Shown here: positions 4,019 to 50,104 of the stretch, one piece after another
How positions within the stretch are numbered: position 1 is the first letter of the stretch
Layout of the letters: the number at the start of each line of letters is the position of its first letter
Source: Eledone cirrhosa
Taxonomy: Eukaryota
Reading direction: 5' to 3'
NCBI GenBank assembly: GCA_964016885.1
Contig: OZ024747.1
Span: 8,866,001 to 8,930,000, forward strand
DNA length: 64,000 nt
Notes under the pieces: generated by a model
Told to the model about the DNA's origin: nothing
What the model saw: the letters and a program-made list of their open reading frames with translations, nothing else
The model's database searches: none
Translations under genes and position numbers: made by a program

Positions 4019-5467
4019 ATGGTTGATTCTTTATTCAAAGATTCATATAAATATTCTGTTGAGCTCAATGACTGTGATACAAAGAAAACCAACAAAGACA
4101 GCACCAAATGTAAACTGTTTGACTGTGATATCTGTGGCAAATCTTTCTTTCGCAATAAGAACTTGAAACAACATCGCAAGACCCATACAAATGTGAAACG
4201 TTTTCACTGTGATATATGTAGTAAAAAGTTTTTCACTAATTCCCACTTGAAACGGCATTACAGGATACACACAGGTGAACGACCATACAAATGTGCCGTC
4301 TGTAAAAAAGCCTTTACACAGAATAATGATTTAAAAAGCCATTTTCGCATCCATACTGGAGAAAGGCCTTTCAAATGTGAAACCTGCAATGAGTCTTTCA
4401 GTGAAAGTGGATCACTGCGGAAGCACATAAAAATTCATACAGGAGAAAAATCCTTTGAATGTAACATTTGTGGACGATGTTTTATCCAAAGCAGTCAGCT
4501 AAGACAACATATTCTCACTCATACTGGTGAAAAACCCTTCCAGTGTCAGATCTGCAGCAGGAATTTTGCCCAAAATAGCGCTTTGAAAAGACACTATAGG
4601 GTGCATACTGGAGAAAAACCATTTCCATGTAGTTTTTGTCCTGCATCTTTTACACGGAGTTGCTTCTTGAAAAAACACTTAATGCGGCATAAAGAGACTA
4701 AATCGTTTGAGTGTGATATTTGCCAGGAAATGTTTTTAAGGGAAGATGACCTGCTGTCTCACTGGCAAATGCATTTTGAAGAAAATATTTTTGAAGAGGA
4801 AACTCCTGAAAATACTTGTACTGAAATGATTTATATAAATGAAGACAGTGAAATCTACCTTGATAAAAATCCTGTACCTGTTGCTTTACATATAAATACT
4901 TTTGCTTTTGATAATCTTATTGGGTATCACAATAAAATGAAAGAGGATAAGCCTTTTAGCTGTGATATATGTAGCAAGGGTTTTACAACAAAAGCGCACC
5001 TTAAACGACACAACATGATTCATACAGGAGTAAAACCACACAAGTGTTCTCTGTGTGAAAAGTCCTTTGCACAACGTAGTGAACTTAAAAGCCATTATAG
5101 GACACATACTGGAGAGAAACCTTACAAGTGTGAGATCTGTGAAGAGTGTTTCAGTGAGAAAGGTTCATTAGGGAAACACATGAGAATTCACACAGGGGAG
5201 AAGTCATTTAAATGTAACATCTGCAGCCGACGTTTCACCCAGAGTGGTCACCTACATCAGCACCTTTTGATTCACACTGGAGAGAAACCTTTCAAGTGTG
5301 AGACATGTGGTAAGCCATTTGCAAAAAATAGTGCATTAAAAAGACATTATACTGTCCATACTGGTGAGAAACCTTTCCCATGTACAGTATGTGGGGAAGC
5401 CTTCAGTCAGAGTTGCCACATGAAAAAACACCTATTAAAACATCACCTTAGTGAAACACTACAGTAA
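4019..5467 (+). CDS. C2H2 zinc-finger protein, 14 fingers in two arrays (8+6) separated by an acidic spacer
   Basis: Intact 482-aa ORF with CxxC-x12-HxxxH repeats and TGEKP/TGERP linkers. A splice-acceptor-like T-tract+CAG ends at 3977, and an in-frame TGA at 3989-3991 supports ATG 4019 as the start. AATAAA lies near 5594. Confidence 0.95.
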   Translation: MVDSLFKDSYKYSVELNDCDTKKTNKDSTKCKLFDCDICGKSFFRNKNLKQHRKTHTNVKRFHCDICSKKFFTNSHLKRHYRIHTGERPYKCAVCKKAFTQNNDLKSHFRIHTGERPFKCETCNESFSESGSLRKHIKIHTGEKSFECNICGRCFIQSSQLRQHILTHTGEKPFQCQICSRNFAQNSALKRHYRVHTGEKPFPCSFCPASFTRSCFLKKHLMRHKETKSFECDICQEMFLREDDLLSHWQMHFEENIFEEETPENTCTEMIYINEDSEIYLDKNPVPVALHINTFAFDNLIGYHNKMKEDKPFSCDICSKGFTTKAHLKRHNMIHTGVKPHKCSLCEKSFAQRSELKSHYRTHTGEKPYKCEICEECFSEKGSLGKHMRIHTGEKSFKCNICSRRFTQSGHLHQHLLIHTGEKPFKCETCGKPFAKNSALKRHYTVHTGEKPFPCTVCGEAFSQSCHMKKHLLKHHLSETLQ

Positions 5468-11561: not shown

Positions 11562-12440
11562 ATGATGGAAGAACCACCAGAATTACAAATTATTTTCAAA
11601 GCTGATCCTTTACTGAAAACCCAACTCTTACAATCAACCAAAACAGCCTCTGTGAAAAGATCCCATGTCTGTGATATTTGTGGGAAGACATTTTCCCAGA
11701 AGAACACTCTAGTTTTACACATTAGGACACACACTGGTGATAGGCCTTATCACTGTCAAGTGTGTGGTAGAGGTTTCTCAGCTAGCTGCTCCTTGAAAAA
11801 GCATGTAAGGATTCATACAGGAGAAAAACCTTATGAGTGCAATGATTGTGGTAAATGCTTTTCCCAGAACAGCCATTTGATCCTTCATATGAGAACACAC
11901 ACAGGAGACAGGCCTTACAAGTGCAATCTCTGTGAAAAACGGTTTTCCTACAGCAGTTCTTTCAAGAAACATATGAGAATACACACAGGTGAGAAACCTT
12001 TCCGGTGTGAAGTCTGTCAAAAGAGTCTGTCTGACAACAGTGCCCTGAAACAGCATATCAAAACCCACACAGGTGAGAAACCATACCAGTGTGAAGACTG
12101 TGGCAAGAGCTTCTCATTGAGTATTGACTTGATCAGACACATTCGCACTCATACCAAAGAGACGCCGTATCACTGCGAGGTGTGTACAAGGAGTTTCTCT
12201 GTCAATAGCAACCTCAGACAACATATGCGAACACACACAGGAGAGACACCCTACCCCTGTGATATCTGTGGCAAGCGATTCTCTCGCAATAGTACACTAG
12301 TCCGCCATATCAAAACACACACAGGTGACAGACCATACACTTGTGAAATCTGCCAGAAGAATTTCTCTCAGAACAGCCATCTTATCCGGCACCTGAAGAT
12401 TCACGGGATCACTCCTGTGGCTATTGATAAAACAGTTTGA
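11562..12440 (+). CDS. C2H2 zinc-finger protein, 9 tandem fingers
   Basis: Intact 292-aa ORF with TGDRP/TGEKP/TGETP linkers. A polypyrimidine tract + AG at about 11554 lies just before the ATG. Confidence 0.95.
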
Positions 12441-22221: not shown

Positions 22222-23271
22222 ATGAGTGATGACAATATATCTTTACCTTATGAGAGCAATGGAAAACATAAACAAATAACAGACTGTGTGAAGACAGGCC
22301 CTACAAACACCATACATTGTTGCAATGTATGTGGCAATTTTTTTGAACAGAGAAGCTATTTGCAAAAACACATTAAAATGCACACAGGTGAACTGATTAA
22401 TCAGTGCAGTGTGTGTGGAATGGTTCTGTCAGATAAAAGCAGTTTAAAGAGACATGTGAGGATACATACAGGAGAGAAACCTTATACATGTGACATTTGT
22501 GGAATGAGCTTCTCTCGAAATGGCACTCTGAAAAGTCATTTGCGGACACATACTAAAGAGACACCTTACTTCTGTAAAATCTGTGGGAAACGTTTTTCTG
22601 TCAATAGTTCACTCAACAGGCATATGAAGACTCATTCTGATAGTTTACTTTATTGTTGTGAAATGTGTGGAATATGTTTTGCTCAGAGCCGTTACCTGAA
22701 GAGACATACTAAAATACATACCGGTGAGACAGTTTATAACTGTGAGATCTGTGGCAAGTCTTTCAGTCAAAAATGTAATCTTGAAACACATATGAGAATA
22801 CACAATGATGAAACACCATTTCTATGTGTAATCTGTGGCAAAAGCTTTTCTCTGAACAGTACTTTAAAACGACATTTAATCACACATTCCAATGAAACTC
22901 CTTACCATTGTGAAATCTGTAATAAAAGTTTCTCTCAGAAACGCTACTTAAGACGTCATAGTCGCACACATACTGGAGAAACACCTTACCGCTGTGAACT
23001 CTGCAATAAAGGTTTCTCTCAAAAAAGTAACTTAGAAACACACATGAGGATCCATGATGATGAAACCCCTTATCAATGCTTCATTTGTGGCAGAAGCTTT
23101 TCTTTAAACAGTACCCTAAAACGACATTTGTTTACACATTCAGAAGAGACACCATACCATTGTGAATACTGTGATAAAAAATTCTCTCAAAATCGATATC
23201 TCAAAAAACATCTTAAAATACATTCAAATGATAAGGGCTGCTTAAACAAAAAAGAATGTGATGAAAGTTAG
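22222..23271 (+). CDS. C2H2 zinc-finger protein, 11 tandem fingers
   Basis: The ORF track starts at a TTG (22192) inside the polypyrimidine tract. The acceptor TTTTACAG ends at 22202 and the first ATG is at 22222 (MSDDNIS...). There are 11 canonical fingers. A few upstream coding residues from another exon cannot be excluded. Confidence 0.93.
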   Translation: MSDDNISLPYESNGKHKQITDCVKTGPTNTIHCCNVCGNFFEQRSYLQKHIKMHTGELINQCSVCGMVLSDKSSLKRHVRIHTGEKPYTCDICGMSFSRNGTLKSHLRTHTKETPYFCKICGKRFSVNSSLNRHMKTHSDSLLYCCEMCGICFAQSRYLKRHTKIHTGETVYNCEICGKSFSQKCNLETHMRIHNDETPFLCVICGKSFSLNSTLKRHLITHSNETPYHCEICNKSFSQKRYLRRHSRTHTGETPYRCELCNKGFSQKSNLETHMRIHDDETPYQCFICGRSFSLNSTLKRHLFTHSEETPYHCEYCDKKFSQNRYLKKHLKIHSNDKGCLNKKECDES

Positions 23272-30117: not shown

Positions 30118-30972
30118 ATGAAGACCCATGATGAGGAGATGGGTCTAAAGAAAGATGTACCGAAGGAGAAACCTGTACATAAGTGTGAATTCTGTGAGAA
30201 GACATTTGATAGGAACAGCAGTTTGGTTTATCATAGGAGGTCACATACTGGAGAGAAACCTTTCGAATGTAACGTCTGTAACAAGATGTTCACTCAAAAG
30301 GGAAGCCTTAAAGTGCACATGAGAACTCACACTGGGGAAATGCCGTTCCACTGCCAAGTGTGTGAGAAAAACTTTTCCCAGGAATGCTCACTCCGAATAC
30401 ACATGCGTAGACACACTGGTGAGACACCTTACAGTTGTGAGTACTGTGATAAGGTATTTGCTCGAAAAGACTATTTAACTCTGCACACCAGAAGTCATAC
30501 TGGTGAAACACCATATCGTTGCGACACCTGTGAAAAGGTTTTCACTCGTAAAGAACATCTCAATACACACAAGCGAATCCATACGGGAGAGAGACCATTT
30601 AACTGTAAATTCTGTGGCTACTGTTTTGCTGATGTTCGAACATTGAAACATCATATACGGATACATACAGGAGAAAAACCATACCGATGTGAGATCTGTG
30701 GAAAAGCATGCTCTAGGAAATACAGCATGACCATACACATGCGAACTCATACAAGGGCCACAAAAATTGAATGTGAAATTTGCAAGAAGATTTTCTCTCG
30801 TAAGAACAGCTTAAATGTCCACATGAAATCCCACACTGATGTAATGACACACCAGTGTCAGATTTGCAGTGAGGAGTTCTGGAGTAAAGAAAATCTTGCT
30901 CTTCATGTGCAGAATCATTGTGAAAACAAATCGTATGAAAATGTGCAAGAAGGTTTCCTTTCTTGTAAGTGA
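30118..30972 (+). CDS. C2H2 zinc-finger protein, 9 tandem fingers
   Basis: Intact 284-aa ORF with TGEKP/TGETP/TGERP linkers. An acceptor-like TTTTCTTTTAACAG ends at 30030. Confidence 0.95.
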
Positions 30973-38891: not shown

Positions 38892-39794
38892 TTAAACATA
38901 TTCATCATTTGCAATGCCAGGTTTCCACAAGCCAGATAAATCATCCCCTAGATGTATTCTCATATGTCTTTTTAAGTTACTGTTCTGTGAAAAGTTCTTC
39001 TTACATATTTCACACTGGAATGGTTTTAAACCAACATGTGATCGCAGATGTCTCTGAAAGTTGAAGTTTTGAGAGAAACATCTGCCACACAACTTACACT
39101 CAAATGGTTTTTCACCAGTGTGTACTTGAAAGTGTTTCTTTAGTGAGGAGCCTTCAATGAAATCTCGGCCACAGATTTCGCAGTGGTACGGTCTTACTCC
39201 AGTATGGATACGGCTGTGTTTCTGAAGATATTTACTGCATGTAAATGCTTTTCCACAGATTTCACAAAAGAATGATCTTTGGTCAATATGAATCTTCAGA
39301 TGTTGTTGCAAGTGTTCATGCCTCAAGTATTTATTACCACAAATATCACACCAAAACAACTTCTTGCCAATGTGTGATTTCATGTGTCTTTGAAAGTTAA
39401 AATTTTGAGTGAAATCCTTTCCACACATCTCACAGTGAAAAGGTTTTTCTCCTGTATGTGTCCGCAAGTGTTTTTTCAAATCGGAACTTTGTGTGAACTT
39501 CTTCCAACATACTTCACAGCTGAATGGTTTCTCACCAGTGTGTGACCTCAGATGCCTCTGTAAATTGCAGTTCTGCGAGAAGTCTTTCCCACATAACTGG
39601 CAGTTGAAAGGCTTCTCGCCGCTGTGCAACTTGAGGTGCCTTTGAAAGTTGAAGTTCTGAGCAAAAGACTTTCCACACAGTTTGCAATGATAAGATTTCT
39701 CACCAGTGTGTAATCTCAAATGTCTTTTTAAGTTGCAGTTTTGAGAGAAATCTTTCCCACACAACTGACACTGGAATATCTTCATTGACATCAT
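38892..39794 (-). CDS. C2H2 zinc-finger protein, 10 tandem fingers, almost no non-finger sequence
   Basis: Intact 300-aa ORF with repeated QNxNxxRH helices and TGEKP linkers. Confidence 0.94.
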   Translation of the reverse strand: MMSMKIFQCQLCGKDFSQNCNLKRHLRLHTGEKSYHCKLCGKSFAQNFNFQRHLKLHSGEKPFNCQLCGKDFSQNCNLQRHLRSHTGEKPFSCEVCWKKFTQSSDLKKHLRTHTGEKPFHCEMCGKDFTQNFNFQRHMKSHIGKKLFWCDICGNKYLRHEHLQQHLKIHIDQRSFFCEICGKAFTCSKYLQKHSRIHTGVRPYHCEICGRDFIEGSSLKKHFQVHTGEKPFECKLCGRCFSQNFNFQRHLRSHVGLKPFQCEICKKNFSQNSNLKRHMRIHLGDDLSGLWKPGIANDEYV

Positions 39795-40642
39795 GTTTTA
39801 CAGAAAAAAAAGGAACATTTGAAATTGTGTACACACGCACATACATATATGTGTATGTATGAGTATATTTGTATTCAGTATGTGCACATATATGTAATAT
39901 GTATATGTGCACACGTGTAAATATGTAAATATATATATTGTATATATGTCCTTATTTAGGTAAAAACCTATTTATATTCACGTGTGCATATATAACTTCT
40001 ATATATAATACATCTGAACAAACATGTTTGGTCTGCATGTATACACATTTATATATACATGTTAACTTTCAGTAGGTAGTATAAAAATAATGTCCGTTGC
40101 TGTTAAACCTGTTCCTATGCAAGTTGGTTGATTCATTAAGAACCTCTCTTTTATTTCAATTTGTTGATTGGCAGTCTCAATTAATACACAATTATGTGTG
40201 TGTGAGTATATATATATATCTATAGGTGTATGTGTCTGTGAATATATATATGTACGTCATATAAATTATTCATTCACTTTGATGACAATTCCAGTGACTT
40301 TTATTCTCAGTCTTCAAATTCTGGAAAAGAAAATTAAAACATGACTATAAAAAGAAACATGTTTGTACATATGTATGTATACGTGTGCGCATGCATATAA
40401 ATATATATATATATATGTTAGCAGTAGCACTAACATAGCATGATTCATATGAAGGCATATACAATATGTTTATGTATAATAAACATATATAAGTCTGGCT
40501 ATGAATATTTTAAGCTGTGATCATGTCTTCATTTTTGCCAGCTAAGAAGACTGGAACAATATGAAATAGTGTCTTGCTCAAGGATACAATGTGCCATCAA
40601 GAATTGAACTAATGATTGTGGGCTGCTGAACATCTTTCACGA

Positions 40643-44400: not shown

Positions 44401-44441
44401 ACCACTTCTACCACAACCATCTTTACAGGTATAGAATTTTC

Positions 44442-44761
44442 GGCACTACAACGCTATTAGCTGTCAGTCGTGAAAGCAGGCGATGGTGACGTCATTCGTC
44501 ATCGTTTATTTCCGTATTACTACCACCACGCGTAAGTGGAGTTTTCCCGCGTTTTTTATTTTTTTTATTAAAGCATATCGATGTAAGTGGAGTTACTTAA
44601 ATGAAAATATAGGTGGCCCTTAAAAGGGCCAAATTAGAAAACAAATTTAAGTTAATTAGAAAAAAAAAAACCTCCACTTACGCGTGGTAGTAATACGGAA
44701 ACAAACGATGTTTTGCTTTCATCGGCTGCTTTCGACTGACAGCTAATAGCGTTGTAGTGCT
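44442..44761. mobile_element. MITE with GGCACTACAACGCTATTAGCTGTCAGTC TIRs and an internal histone stem-loop; possibly Merlin-like
   Basis: About 29-bp TIRs, long subterminal inverted repeats (CATCGTTT.TTTCCGTATTACTACCAC..GCGTAAGTGGAG), and flanking 8-bp direct repeat GAATTTTC (44434-44441, 44762-44769). Confidence 0.8.
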
Positions 44762-45127
44762 GAATTTTCGAAACATATTTTAACCTTTGTTTCAATTTTT
44801 TTTAGTTTCAGTTCTCATCTCATGCATTAATTCGTAGCTAACATATATATAATATTCCATAGTTCAGTAACTTTGTAAACATTTTGACAATACAGTAAGA
44901 ATAAGGTGGTTGACTGGGCCGACTTAGCTTTAATAGTTATTTATGTCAATATGTCATTATTTTATAACATTTAGACTCGGCAATGGTGGGAGGGAGAGCT
45001 AACAGCATCCATAAATCCATAATTAAAAATGAAATTTAATTAAAAAAAGACATACTGGTCGGCGCCATAACGCGCGCGCGCACACTCAGATATGCATCTT
45101 CTTCATTACACGTACTAAGATTAAACG

Positions 45128-45909: not shown

Positions 45910-46850
45910 TATAATGAGAATCTAAATTATGTTAATTTAAAATCTAACCACCCCATTAACATTAAAAATGCTATAGTTAGTAATATTGGAAAAAGAATAT
46001 CAAACCTATCATCTAATAAAAATATTTTTGATGCTAACGCCAATTACTATAATAATGCGCTTTCTAAAGCCGGTTATCCTGATAAAATCAAATACAGTAA
46101 AGAAACCAATCCTAGAAGATCTTACAGTAAAATAATTAATTATGATCATTCCAATAACTTTAATAAAAGACCTAGATACAAAAATATAATCTGGTATAAT
46201 GCTCCTTTCTCTATTTCTATTAATAATAATATTCCTAAATTATTCTTTAGTGCCTTAAATAAATGCTTCCCACCCTCACATATCTATAGTAAAATATTTA
46301 ACAAACATACAATAACATTTTCCTATTCCAACATCTCCAACATTATCTCTAAACACAATAAAATATTAAATACTAAATCTCTTCCTTCCTTCCAACACTG
46401 AATGTCATAATAATAGCAGTAGTACTCCCGACGTCATTGTTAACTCTAGGCTAGTTTCTGCAAACTCAAATACGACGTCAAACGTAACTTCGTCAAATGT
46501 TCTTAATACCAATCTAAATCAGGAAACTATTATTCCTATCGTAAATAACTTCTCCAATCCAATTCCTCCTATAGATAACACTAGGTCAGTTATTAATAAC
46601 GTTGTTAATTTCTCTAATTGCAATTGTAATTGCCCTGTTAAAAATAAATGTCCTCTCAACAACCATTGTCTTGAAAAAAAACTTAGTCTATGAATGTAAA
46701 GTTATAACTGATACCAATTCCTTTACCTATTTTGGCTCCACTTCCACCTCCTTCAAAGCTCGTTTTTATAATCACAATTCTTTTTTTAAATACCAACTTA
46801 AAAGAACCAACACGGCACTCTCAGAACTCATATGGTCCTTCAAAGGGTTA
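45910..46850 (+). mobile_element. Penelope-like retroelement fragment (post-RT region + C-terminal GIY-YIG endonuclease), disrupted
   Basis: SNHP.NIKN...RISNLSSN...YNNALSKAGY and IIWYNAPFS...KIFNK, then CNCPVKNKCPLNNHCL /frameshift in A-run at about 46680/ LVYECKV...YFGSTSTSFKARFYNH. The fragment starts in (TA)n. Confidence 0.8.
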
Positions 46851-47839
46851 TATATATATTTCTTTAAAAATATACCCATTTATTTCATTATTATTTATTA
46901 TACATTATATATCATTCCTATTTATCACTTTCCTTTCTTCCTCTTTTCTTTTAATTTCTAACCTCTAATCTGTACTTTTTCTTCCTAACTATCATTGGCC
47001 ATAAAAATTATTATTACCTTTTAAATACTTTATAGCATTACCTTTAAAAATCCTTCGTAAACATAAACATTTTTTTGACGTTAGATTATCCCTCCTCAGT
47101 TCATTATATTTTTCTCCCTTTCATGCTCGTCTGACTTTTACATATCACAATACATAAAAACAAACTTAAACCCTAACTAATCTCCTTTATTACATTATAT
47201 TATTACCATTAGAAAATACTTCATAAACATATATATTTTGATGTTAGAGTCTTCTCTTCCTTAAACACTATTTTCTTCTTTGCTTTCTGCGCTCATTTGT
47301 AAACAAACTATTTACATATATTACGCATACATATTACATTACATAAAAAAAAAATTAAACACTAACTAATTCCTCTAAATTCATAATTCCTCCACTCTTC
47401 TACTTCTTTTCACCTTATATCCTTAATAACATTAATATTTTTATTTTAATAATACATATTAACAATTTCTTTTCATCGCACATATTATTAAACCCTTCAA
47501 TATACAAACCTTAATTTAACATTATTCTTAATTTTTTTTTCTCTTCACCAACTTTTTATTTTCAAATTCTTTTAAATTATATATTTATCTTCCAACGGCT
47601 TTTTAACCTCTCTCTGTGAAACAATATATATTTTTTCTCAGTTATAAAGGCTATCTCTCTCTTTCTATCACCCATCTCTCCTCCTATCTCATTCTTCCTT
47701 ATTATACTCCTCCCCCACCATTCTTTACTCTTATCTCCTCCTCTTTTTCACCCTTTCCAACCCCCCTTCACCTTTTTCCCAATATCACACATCAATCTTA
47801 AATTACTTTTCATATGTTGATTTAAAACTTCACTATTCA

Positions 47840-48302
47840 CAAGTATATATATATGTGTGTGTGTGTATGAATCTATATATATATATGTATATGTATATAT
47901 ATGTATGTATATGTATATATATGTATGTATATGTATATATATGTATGTATATCTATATATATGTGTGTGTATGTATATATATGTGTGTATGTATATATGT
48001 GTGTATGTATATATATGTGTATGCATATGTGTGTGTGTATGTATATATAAATGTGTGTGTGTATGCATATATGTGTGTATGTATATATATGTATATATAT
48101 GTATATATATATATATGAAGATAAATTAACGGAGCCATAGTCGCGTTATTCCCTGTAAATTATGTGCTCAAAGGGAAAGGAATCCTATACAAATTGTATA
48201 TATATATATATATTGTTGTATATATATGTATATGTGTATATATATGCATGTATATGTGTATTTGTATATATGTATATGTGTGTATGTATGTATATATGAA
48301 TG

Positions 48303-48337
<35 letters not shown>

Positions 48338-48350
48338 GTATATATATAGA
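47840..48350. repeat. Compound (TA)/(TG)/(TATG) microsatellite with a short unique insert
   Basis: Directly visible. Confidence 0.9.
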
Positions 48351-48396
48351 TGTAATCTGAATAGTATGGTAGAATATTAAGTGTTAAATGTTAATT

Positions 48397-48433
48397 GAAC
48401 AAGTACTTTCATGCTTTCGCAATCTTCAGGTTC
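48397..48433 (-). ncRNA. Minimal type-I hammerhead ribozyme motif
   Basis: Minus strand GAAC-CTGAAGA-TTGCGAAAGCAT-GAAA-GTAC-TT-GTTC. It has stem I GAAC/GTTC, an intact CUGANGA and GAAA core, stem II TGC/GCA with a GAAA loop, palindromic stem III AGTACT, and NUH = CUU. Confidence 0.7.
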
Positions 48434-48739
48434 TTATTCTGTGGTGACAGTCAAGTTTGCACTTTTCAACTGTAATGAGATGGGTACATTTTGTGCCTTA
48501 TATACCGTGAAAAGCGGCTTCAGAATTCTAAATTTTGAAAACTGTATTTCGACCAATCGGTGTGTAGTTTCACTGGATTACTGAAGCTGATTGGTTTAGG
48601 CATCACAGTTGGTTGAGCATGTCTAACGACTTCTATTTGGCTCTATTTGGCTTCTATTTGGCATCAATTGTTTTGCTATTTTTAGAAATGATGTAAATAG
48701 CATTTTCTAGGGTTTTTATACCCCTAAGAATTATTCTTG

Positions 48740-49640
48740 TTCATTTACAGTGAGTACTGGGTGTTTTTTGTTGTAATTCCTCCACGACTACTTTACAGTA
48801 TGGACTGGGCGTTTTTTACCGTGTCACCATCACGACCACTTTACAGTGTTTCGGCCTGTTCTCATGAAAGATATATTGGTGGGTGGGATGGAGTGGTACA
48901 TACTGTATGTATGTTTCAGCCTTGGCCTGGGCCCGTGGGAAGTTGGGGTTGGGATTTCTGTATTACCTCATAACGCCAGAGATCTTGGTCCTGTGTCATT
49001 GCCTTTCAGAGGTGCAATTGGGCAAGGTCGGCTTTTATCACTTCATCTCAAGTCTTTCTGGGACTTTATGTAGCTGTCATCCTTCATACGAATCACATGT
49101 CCATACCAACATAATCTCCTCTCCTGCACACAACATTTGATTCCTCTTATGCCTAGTTTCTCTTTCAGTTTGTTTATGGTTTGCTGTTCACGTATATTAC
49201 TATTACACATCCATCGGAGCATACAAGCTTCATTCCTTTCTAATCTACGCAAGTCTTCTACACACAGCGCCCAGCTTTCATCACTACCATGCAACATTGC
49301 AGTTCATATGCACACATCATACAGTCTACCTTTTATTCTGAGGGAAAAGCCTTTTGTATCCAGCTGTGGCAGTAGCTCCCTCAACTTCTTCCATCCCGTT
49401 CTTTCAGAACCCCCCCCCCCTGCTAATTCGGTATTGTTTTTACCAAGTCCTCCCAGACTTTGATGTCACTTGTTTTCAGTGATTGTTTGCTGCTTACTGT
49501 CCTGGTGCAACTGCTACATGTAAAACCTACATTCTTAACTAAACTTCCTGAGATCCCACTACATCTCTTGTGTACCCATAGTTTGCATATGGGGCAGAGG
49601 ATGGAGTTTCTACCTACACCTCTCCTACATAATGAGCACA
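48740..49640 (-). mobile_element. RTE-BovB-like LINE fragment
   Basis: CSLCRRGVGRNSILCPICKLWVHKRCSGI (Cys-rich insert) and MLHGSDESWAL...RRLERNEACMLRWMC...VQERRLCWYGHV, plus 3'UTR-like sequence shared with 34817-35415. Confidence 0.85.
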
Positions 49641-50104
49641 CACACACACATATATATACACACACACCCAGCATGGAGTTTCTACCTACACCTCTCCTAC
49701 ATAATGAGCACACACACACACATATATATACACACACACCATGGAGGCACATGGCTTAGTGGTTAGAGCATTGGCCTTGCAATCAAAAGGTTGTGAGTTC
49801 AATTCTCAGACCGGGTGATGTGTTGTTTCCTTGAGCAAGACACTTTATTTCACATTGCTCCAGTTTACTCAGCTGTAGAAATGAGATGATAGGGACTGGG
49901 GACCCTATCATTCCACTGCAAAGTGGTCGTGGAGGTGCCACGGCAAAAAAACACCCAGCACTCACTGTAAATGAGGTTGGTGTTAGGAAGGGCATCCAGC
50001 TGTAGAAATCAAGCCAGCATCAGTTCCCGTCCCACCCTTGCAAGCAGGGAAAAGTGGACGTAAAATGAAATGATGATGATGATGATGACCCACATATATA
50101 TATA

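Follow-up and report, generated by a model that had tools for sequence, protein, structure and literature searches.

A Merlin transposon family in Eledone cirrhosa carries a captured histone H4 3' end and is enriched at replication-dependent histone genes

We analyzed a 64,000-nucleotide stretch of Eledone cirrhosa DNA (contig OZ024747.1, positions 8,866,001 to 8,930,000; hereafter the window) and find in it a 320-bp non-autonomous MITE (copy 1; 44442..44761, unstranded) of a Merlin family that also has autonomous partners. Its inverted arms start with GG, are alignable across ~130 columns, gaps included, and differ at the right end of the element by a single substitution (CC>CT) relative to the GG-starting arm. 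As the original prediction recognized, the element is bounded by an 8-mer, GAATTTTC, which occupies 44434-44441 (+) on the left and recurs at 44762-44769 (+) on the right. Between the arms lies a 62-nt cassette with similarity to a host H4 gene (44569..44630, minus strand), made up of a histone stem-loop, the sequence ACCUA and a downstream motif. The stem-loop itself (16 nt; 44615..44630, minus strand) is preceded by AAUUU, where the donor gene has ACACC. The 19-mer that includes it (minus strand, 44630-44612) reads as first described, with a 6-bp stem and a UUUA loop. The motif TAAGT at 44595..44599 (minus strand) has the native spacing, resembles the motif of host histone genes, and is a candidate HDE-like element. 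The Rfam Histone3 model (RF00032) matches at 44591-44635 (-) and again at 56570-56614 (+), with 34.0 bits, which equals the gathering score. The window had been thought to contain no histone ORF, and none was found on checking.

The second Rfam hit falls in copy 2, a Merlin end module (56438..56821, unstranded) that lacks a TSD of its own and forms the right end of a giant composite element. Its left flank is a junction common to 22 other locus rows, some of which overlap. The module holds a second H4-derived cassette (56575..56637, plus strand) with an intact stem-loop (56575-56590), and a half hairpin lies 3' of this cassette at ~56672-56683. To its left, LINE-like fragments and other repeats (51261..56437, unstranded) match the cargo of a giant element on C1. 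Taken together, 51261-56836 aligns over 5.8 kb, at 93.9% identity, with the end of a TSD-flanked copy of 28 kb there. Additional pieces resembling giant-element cargo occur at 46043-50888, so a rearranged giant may account for more of the stretch that separates copies 1 and 2. The window also features a cluster of tandem C2H2 zinc-finger ORFs with 84-nt repeats (4229-5373, 11691-12376, 22342-23195, 30205-30722, 38892-39797 and 60214-61005). Copy 1 lies ~4.6-4.8 kb upstream of the minus-strand ORF at 38892-39797, in the same sense. No empty-site joint for copy 1 occurs among the joints listed.

Assignment of the non-autonomous element to Merlin, as originally proposed, is upheld by its GG termini, its 8-bp TSD and the PF12762 domain encoded by longer relatives; 5'-GG termini, an 8- or 9-bp TSD and a single ORF with DDE_Tnp_IS1595 are the Merlin criteria set out in PMC8101967. 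The proposed dispersal is equally clear. The 19-mer occurs exactly 608 times in the genome (G000, 3.0 Gb) and its reversed control 0 times, so the hairpin is not a chance occurrence; the count and the 96.8% similarity to an H4 3' end described below together rule chance out. There are 495 exact matches to the TIR pattern genome-wide, and the cassette, counted as a 22-mer from the stem end with at most one mismatch, has ~888 copies, a few of which are H4 genes. Copies of the MITE are non-coding, ~280-330 bp long, found on many contigs, and share their TIR with the autonomous partner. The longer relatives encode a DDE_Tnp_IS1595 protein (PF12762, E=8.7e-19), in two cases as open, intronless ORFs of 300 and 302 aa. 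The 302-aa ORF has IDES, ISDLW and NHIE blocks and is enclosed by the same TIR arms. The nearest transposase proteins are annotated in Octopus bimaculoides and O. sinensis (63-85% identity). Flanks were collected for 38 unique end pairs, with 15 giant-element ends set aside: 14 have an exact 8-bp TSD, 21 match with no more than one mismatch, and none has an exact 9-bp repeat. It had been suspected that the 8-mer might belong to the TIR. The 8-mer differs from copy to copy, which excludes this and identifies it as a true TSD.

Pairs of family TIRs also occur 23.6-38.7 kb apart, and five of six such pairs have an exact 8-bp TSD, one of these being weak because it lies inside an AT run. The giant composite Merlins with matching 8-bp TSDs span 23.6-30.8 kb (G000:C1:155773155-155798795, C1:392475292-392498874, C2:36344524-36369827, C1:304002453-304030870 and C2:76985481-77016260; L207-L222). 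Giants share a cargo of LINE-like fragments and satellites, and some have a transposase at one end. We rejected the idea that they carry histone genes, as histone ORFs are absent from all six giants and from the other element loci. In the youngest clade of autonomous copies, the 5' side ends in a near-perfect internal palindrome of two head-to-head TIR-like halves in place of a normal end, in many copies (for example L110:820-950), and a matching outer TIR lies ~25 kb away in the three such cases fetched. The 5' arm of autonomous copies also contains an inverted copy of the ORF end. In distant Merlins of the same genome (L140, L141, L145, L147 and L149) the last ~100 nt of the ORF are likewise inverted in the 5' arm, which suggests that copying from the 3' to the 5' arm is routine. 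At another distant Merlin (L150), an antisense fragment of the downstream part of the cassette, lacking the hairpin, lies ~290 nt past the ORF stop.

The original prediction held that the interior derives from a host histone 3' end, and alignment to the histone genes bears this out and names the donor. From the stem's first G onward, 62-63 nt match the 3' end of H4 gene L068, near G000:C7:67.4585 Mb, at 96.8% identity (63 columns); the same stretch in three H4 paralogs shows 83-87% identity. No TIR was found at the donor locus, so the direction of transfer was from H4 to the element. The element as source of the H4 flank is ruled out, since the stretch is common to the paralogs and the donor is without a TIR. 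A related MITE subfamily retains more of the gene. It has the native CAACACC flank, with the piece from -7 to +36 present in 30 of 30 loci (many have common flanks and are probably local duplicates), and H4-gene pieces at +299..+344, that is, out to ~+340. Many longer-capture MITEs at G000:C18:4.9-12.6 Mb (many of L254-L276) have flanks in common, as though a larger repeat containing them had been amplified. A comparison by eye shows that the main subfamily lacks 25 bp present in the longer one; this deletion took away the native 5' flank and brought a subterminal repeat up to the stem's first G, at a 1-nt G microhomology. The main subfamily is also trimmed on the 3' side, to +46 or +29. The captured forms can be ordered from long to short, and we infer that this was the order in which they arose.

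On the transposase tree, the capture falls on a single branch. Among 48 ORF copies, left after the removal of rows <600 nt and of four that were duplicate or partial, a 40-row clade with support of 100/100 includes every hairpin-bearing copy, and the eight rows outside it are hairpin-less. No hairpin was found, by pattern and Rfam, in 20 loci (17 + 3) of distant Merlins of this genome (31-43% protein identity). The transposase is under purifying selection across the capture branch, with dN/dS of 0.25-0.27 against four hairpin-less copies and 0.35-0.41 against four basal hairpin-bearing copies.

Both arms of autonomous copies contain outward-facing cassettes; the one in the 3' arm is in sense with the ORF, and the arms include antisense and multiple copies. 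A sense hairpin lies within 700 nt of the ORF end in 33 of the 40 clade rows and exactly 137 nt after the stop in 14. The distance is typically 137 nt and overall 75-660 nt; the MITE itself has no ORF. In host histone genes the hairpin is 19-38 nt from the stop. Regulation is described as depending critically on a spacing of 25-60 nt, and the metazoan median is given as 30 (10.64898/2026.10.14.759114). As in replication-dependent histone 3' ends, the element hairpin consists of the 16-nt consensus followed by ACC(U)A. We defined a downstream motif, WWWGT, from the host histone genes: it is present in 47 of 50, in 38 of them at an offset of 14-15 nt after the stem. The original prediction saw no such downstream element in copy 1; TAAGT is present at an offset of 15 in the element, as in the H4 donor, and is a candidate for pairing with U7. 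By eye, host histone loci (L061-L090 and L187-L206) have the short WWWGT, no long purine-rich HDE, and a second, TYGAT-like motif further down. None of the 65 U7 candidates scored, out of 585,730, exceeds the Rfam cut-off; the best (E=0.23) was not accepted, being below the cut-off and having a 5' end that, by eye, does not pair with the host WWWGT. An SLBP gene is present in the host. The 5' flank, already noted as not A/C-rich, is indeed atypical: A occupies position -3 in 49 of 50 host hairpins and the main subfamily has UUU there, and SLBP is reported, in the account of PMC10388802, to require two 5' adenines. Folding of the main subfamily predicts a stem of 7 bp and base pairing of the downstream motif with sequence upstream, and an AATAAA lies between the transposase stop and the hairpin. 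The subfamily with the CAACACC flank scores 40.5 bits with Rfam, compared with 42.1 bits for the donor.

The family is enriched ~100-fold at replication-dependent histone genes. Of 27 stretches of 10 kb, each with a hairpin-bearing histone gene at its centre, six contain element cassettes; the expectation, for an estimated 562 separate sites, is 0.05 (binomial P=1e-11; host H4 genes excluded). The six stretches hold 14 cassettes in only five separate clusters, and the 27 are not wholly independent of the hypothesis because the idea came from the first core-histone loci. Stretches flanking the histone loci have a cassette in 1 of 13. Cassettes are absent from 92 control loci (602 kb; 0.18 expected) made up of tubulin and U2 genes, distant Merlins, arbitrary positions and histone-like hits that lack a hairpin. 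The 16 10-kb stretches around H1 or histone-like hits without a hairpin have none, nor do the three around U2 genes, a comparison of little power. Controls close to genes cover little sequence (tubulin 104 kb, U2 30 kb), so the family may have a milder general preference for active genes. In the H1 set, viewed afterwards, a MITE with a TSD lies ~4 kb upstream at one of the two hairpin-bearing loci and is the second-best match to copy 1. One autonomous-type copy begins 77 nt beyond the point where an H3 hairpin starts. One hairpin-less family copy sits inside a histone cluster (L194/L195), and from this single copy we infer that the bias preceded the capture. The bias is partial, as 205 element loci (833 kb) have no histone ORF. 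In a single case noted post hoc, a family MITE (L006, G000:C3:307256610) lies ~93 kb from a tandem U2 snRNA array. The enrichment, like the autonomous partner with a hairpin behind its transposase ORF, lay outside the view of the original prediction.

So, what does a Merlin transposon do with a histone 3' end? The original prediction suggested that dispersed copies could supply poly(A)-independent ends to host transcripts or act as SLBP decoys. There are ~888 cassettes to draw on, copy 1 is in sense to the zinc-finger ORF ~4.6-4.8 kb away, and among 172 unique copies, anchored outside the hairpin so that copies with indels adjoining it drop out, 128 hairpins are perfect and 135 fit the consensus and pair. 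However, G/C positions of the stem have changed in 42 of 1720 cases (2.4%, mostly G>A and C>T), compared with 9 of 688 (1.3%) downstream (Fisher P=0.09; the downstream stretch is the anchor and is biased low). As stem changes are no rarer than those downstream, there is no sign of selection on inserted hairpins, which says nothing of active masters. Host-level selection was thus looked for and not seen among the 172 copies, and the main subfamily has lost the A-rich 5' flank and has a suboptimal one in its place. Exaptation by the host is highly improbable. We consider it somewhat probable that a Merlin biased to histone loci captured H4 DNA and carries the cassette as a passenger within its subterminal arms. 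Uptake of the H4 3' end, probably a single event, would follow from a likely preference of the family for insertion next to replication-dependent histone genes. Capture could have occurred by templated gap repair or aberrant transposition beside an H4 gene. The cassette would then have been copied between arms, later trimmed, including by the 25-bp deletion at the G microhomology, and passively carried since, and the MITE would be mobilized in trans by the 302-aa transposase. The UUU flank, the 137-nt spacing, the AATAAA, the predicted pairing of the downstream motif, the antisense and multiple copies and the unprotected stem are most likely signs of a passenger. Against this, the hairpin and at least ~20 nt downstream persist in both subfamilies examined, with flanks eroded on both sides. 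The 5' deletion ends exactly at the first G of the stem, a pattern expected from selection on the hairpin. A sense hairpin is retained in most rows of the clade, and an unrelated transposon family of nematodes took up the same signal, according to its description in PMC3169594.

These observations suit another possibility, rather unlikely in our estimation, in which the captured cassette forms the 3' end of the transposase mRNA, with U7 snRNP cutting after ACCUA and SLBP bound to the hairpin. A histone-type end would have the transposase made in S phase or stored in oocytes, when cut-and-paste transposition gains copies, and MITEs would inherit the cassette passively. The order of parts is as expected, an intronless ORF being followed by a sense hairpin (in 33 of 40 rows, 14 of them at the one distance of 137 nt), ACCUA and the host downstream motif at its native spacing. 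The host has SLBP, the CAACACC subfamily with its native flank scores nearly as the donor does, the transposase has been under purifying selection across the capture branch, and the hairpin survives a trimming that ends at its first base. A gain in copy number from transposition behind the replication fork is described in PMC5371812. Yet the native 5' flank is missing from the 3' hairpin of every autonomous copy examined, 137 nt exceeds the spacing described as critical, the upstream AATAAA could terminate the mRNA earlier, the downstream motif is predicted to be paired, and the antisense cassette of the 5' arm is kept equally well. In its full form, which is tentative and read from sequence, a poly(A)-free, H4-derived end would tie transposase supply to S phase or to oocyte SLBP, and the element would be drawn to the histone locus body and reinsert there. 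The symmetry of the arms, with repeated cassettes facing outward in both, and enrichment at hairpin-bearing histone genes, with none at the 16 hairpin-less hits, could instead point to a homing or end-function device, acting as DNA or nascent RNA. The cassette might then be a tether to the histone locus body or a palindrome bound by transposase, causing the bias and kept in both arms for that reason. We find this improbable: hairpin-less relatives have transposed with TSDs (L125), one of them into a histone cluster, most copies are far from histone genes, and one end of giant A has a matching TSD but no consensus hairpin in its last 10 kb. Passive carriage of H4 DNA by a histone-locus-biased Merlin is thus the reading that we retain.

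That a TIR transposon can capture a histone hairpin was already known from the Tm1-HH elements of root-knot nematodes. Tm1-HH elements are Mutator/Foldback TIR derivatives for which PMC3169594 left the function open and proposed a Pack-MULE-like capture. As there, we find TIR derivatives, composite arms and a histone hairpin with its 3' sequence (300-400 nt in Tm1-HH). Unlike Tm1-HH, with its Mutator/Phantom transposase and 9-bp TSD, the present family has a Merlin transposase and an 8-bp TSD and comes from another phylum, so it resembles that group and is not a member of it. The parts of PMC3169594 on which we draw describe the Tm1-HH hairpin in non-autonomous elements only (eight in M. incognita) and give neither a named donor nor a histone-locus bias. 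The Merlin family has the hairpin in both arms and behind a transposase ORF, ~888 copies, a named donor and a single origin on the tree. Like Pack-MULEs, as characterized in PMC3169594, it is a TIR element with host DNA between its ends; in contrast to them, its cargo is a non-coding processing signal within the subterminal repeats of the autonomous element itself. GG termini, an 8-bp TSD and a single DDE_Tnp_IS1595 ORF are shared with Merlin/IS1016-IS1595 transposons as described in PMC8101967, whereas the histone 3' cassette, the TSD-flanked composites of 23.6-30.8 kb and the enrichment at histone genes set the family apart from described Merlins; the main text of that paper uses the word 'histone' 0 times. 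Our literature search, with most subscription journals, Repbase and supplements outside its scope, found no Merlin or cephalopod element with a histone hairpin, nor such an insertion bias. The cassette is like a replication-dependent histone 3' end (RF00032) in its hairpin, ACC(U)A, host downstream motif at native spacing and true H4 origin. It differs from one in having no histone ORF, no A/C-rich 5' flank in the main subfamily and a distance of 137 nt from the stop, against the reported median of 30.

Regardless of function, the family adds a second, independent case of a DNA transposon that has taken up a histone hairpin. Even as a passenger, it is a traced capture with a named donor and both longer and shorter captured pieces, and it is accompanied by a ~100-fold preference of this Merlin family for replication-dependent histone genes and by Merlin composites 24-31 kb in length. 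As most Rfam Histone3 hits in this genome are transposon copies, such hits call for caution. Histone mRNAs are described in PMC12305476 as the sole non-polyadenylated mRNAs. A transposase gene followed by a complete histone 3' cassette offers a ready test of whether a selfish element can use the histone pathway to time its activity to replication. If so, the histone pathway would be handling an mRNA that encodes no histone, and nematode Tm1-HH would be a convergent case.
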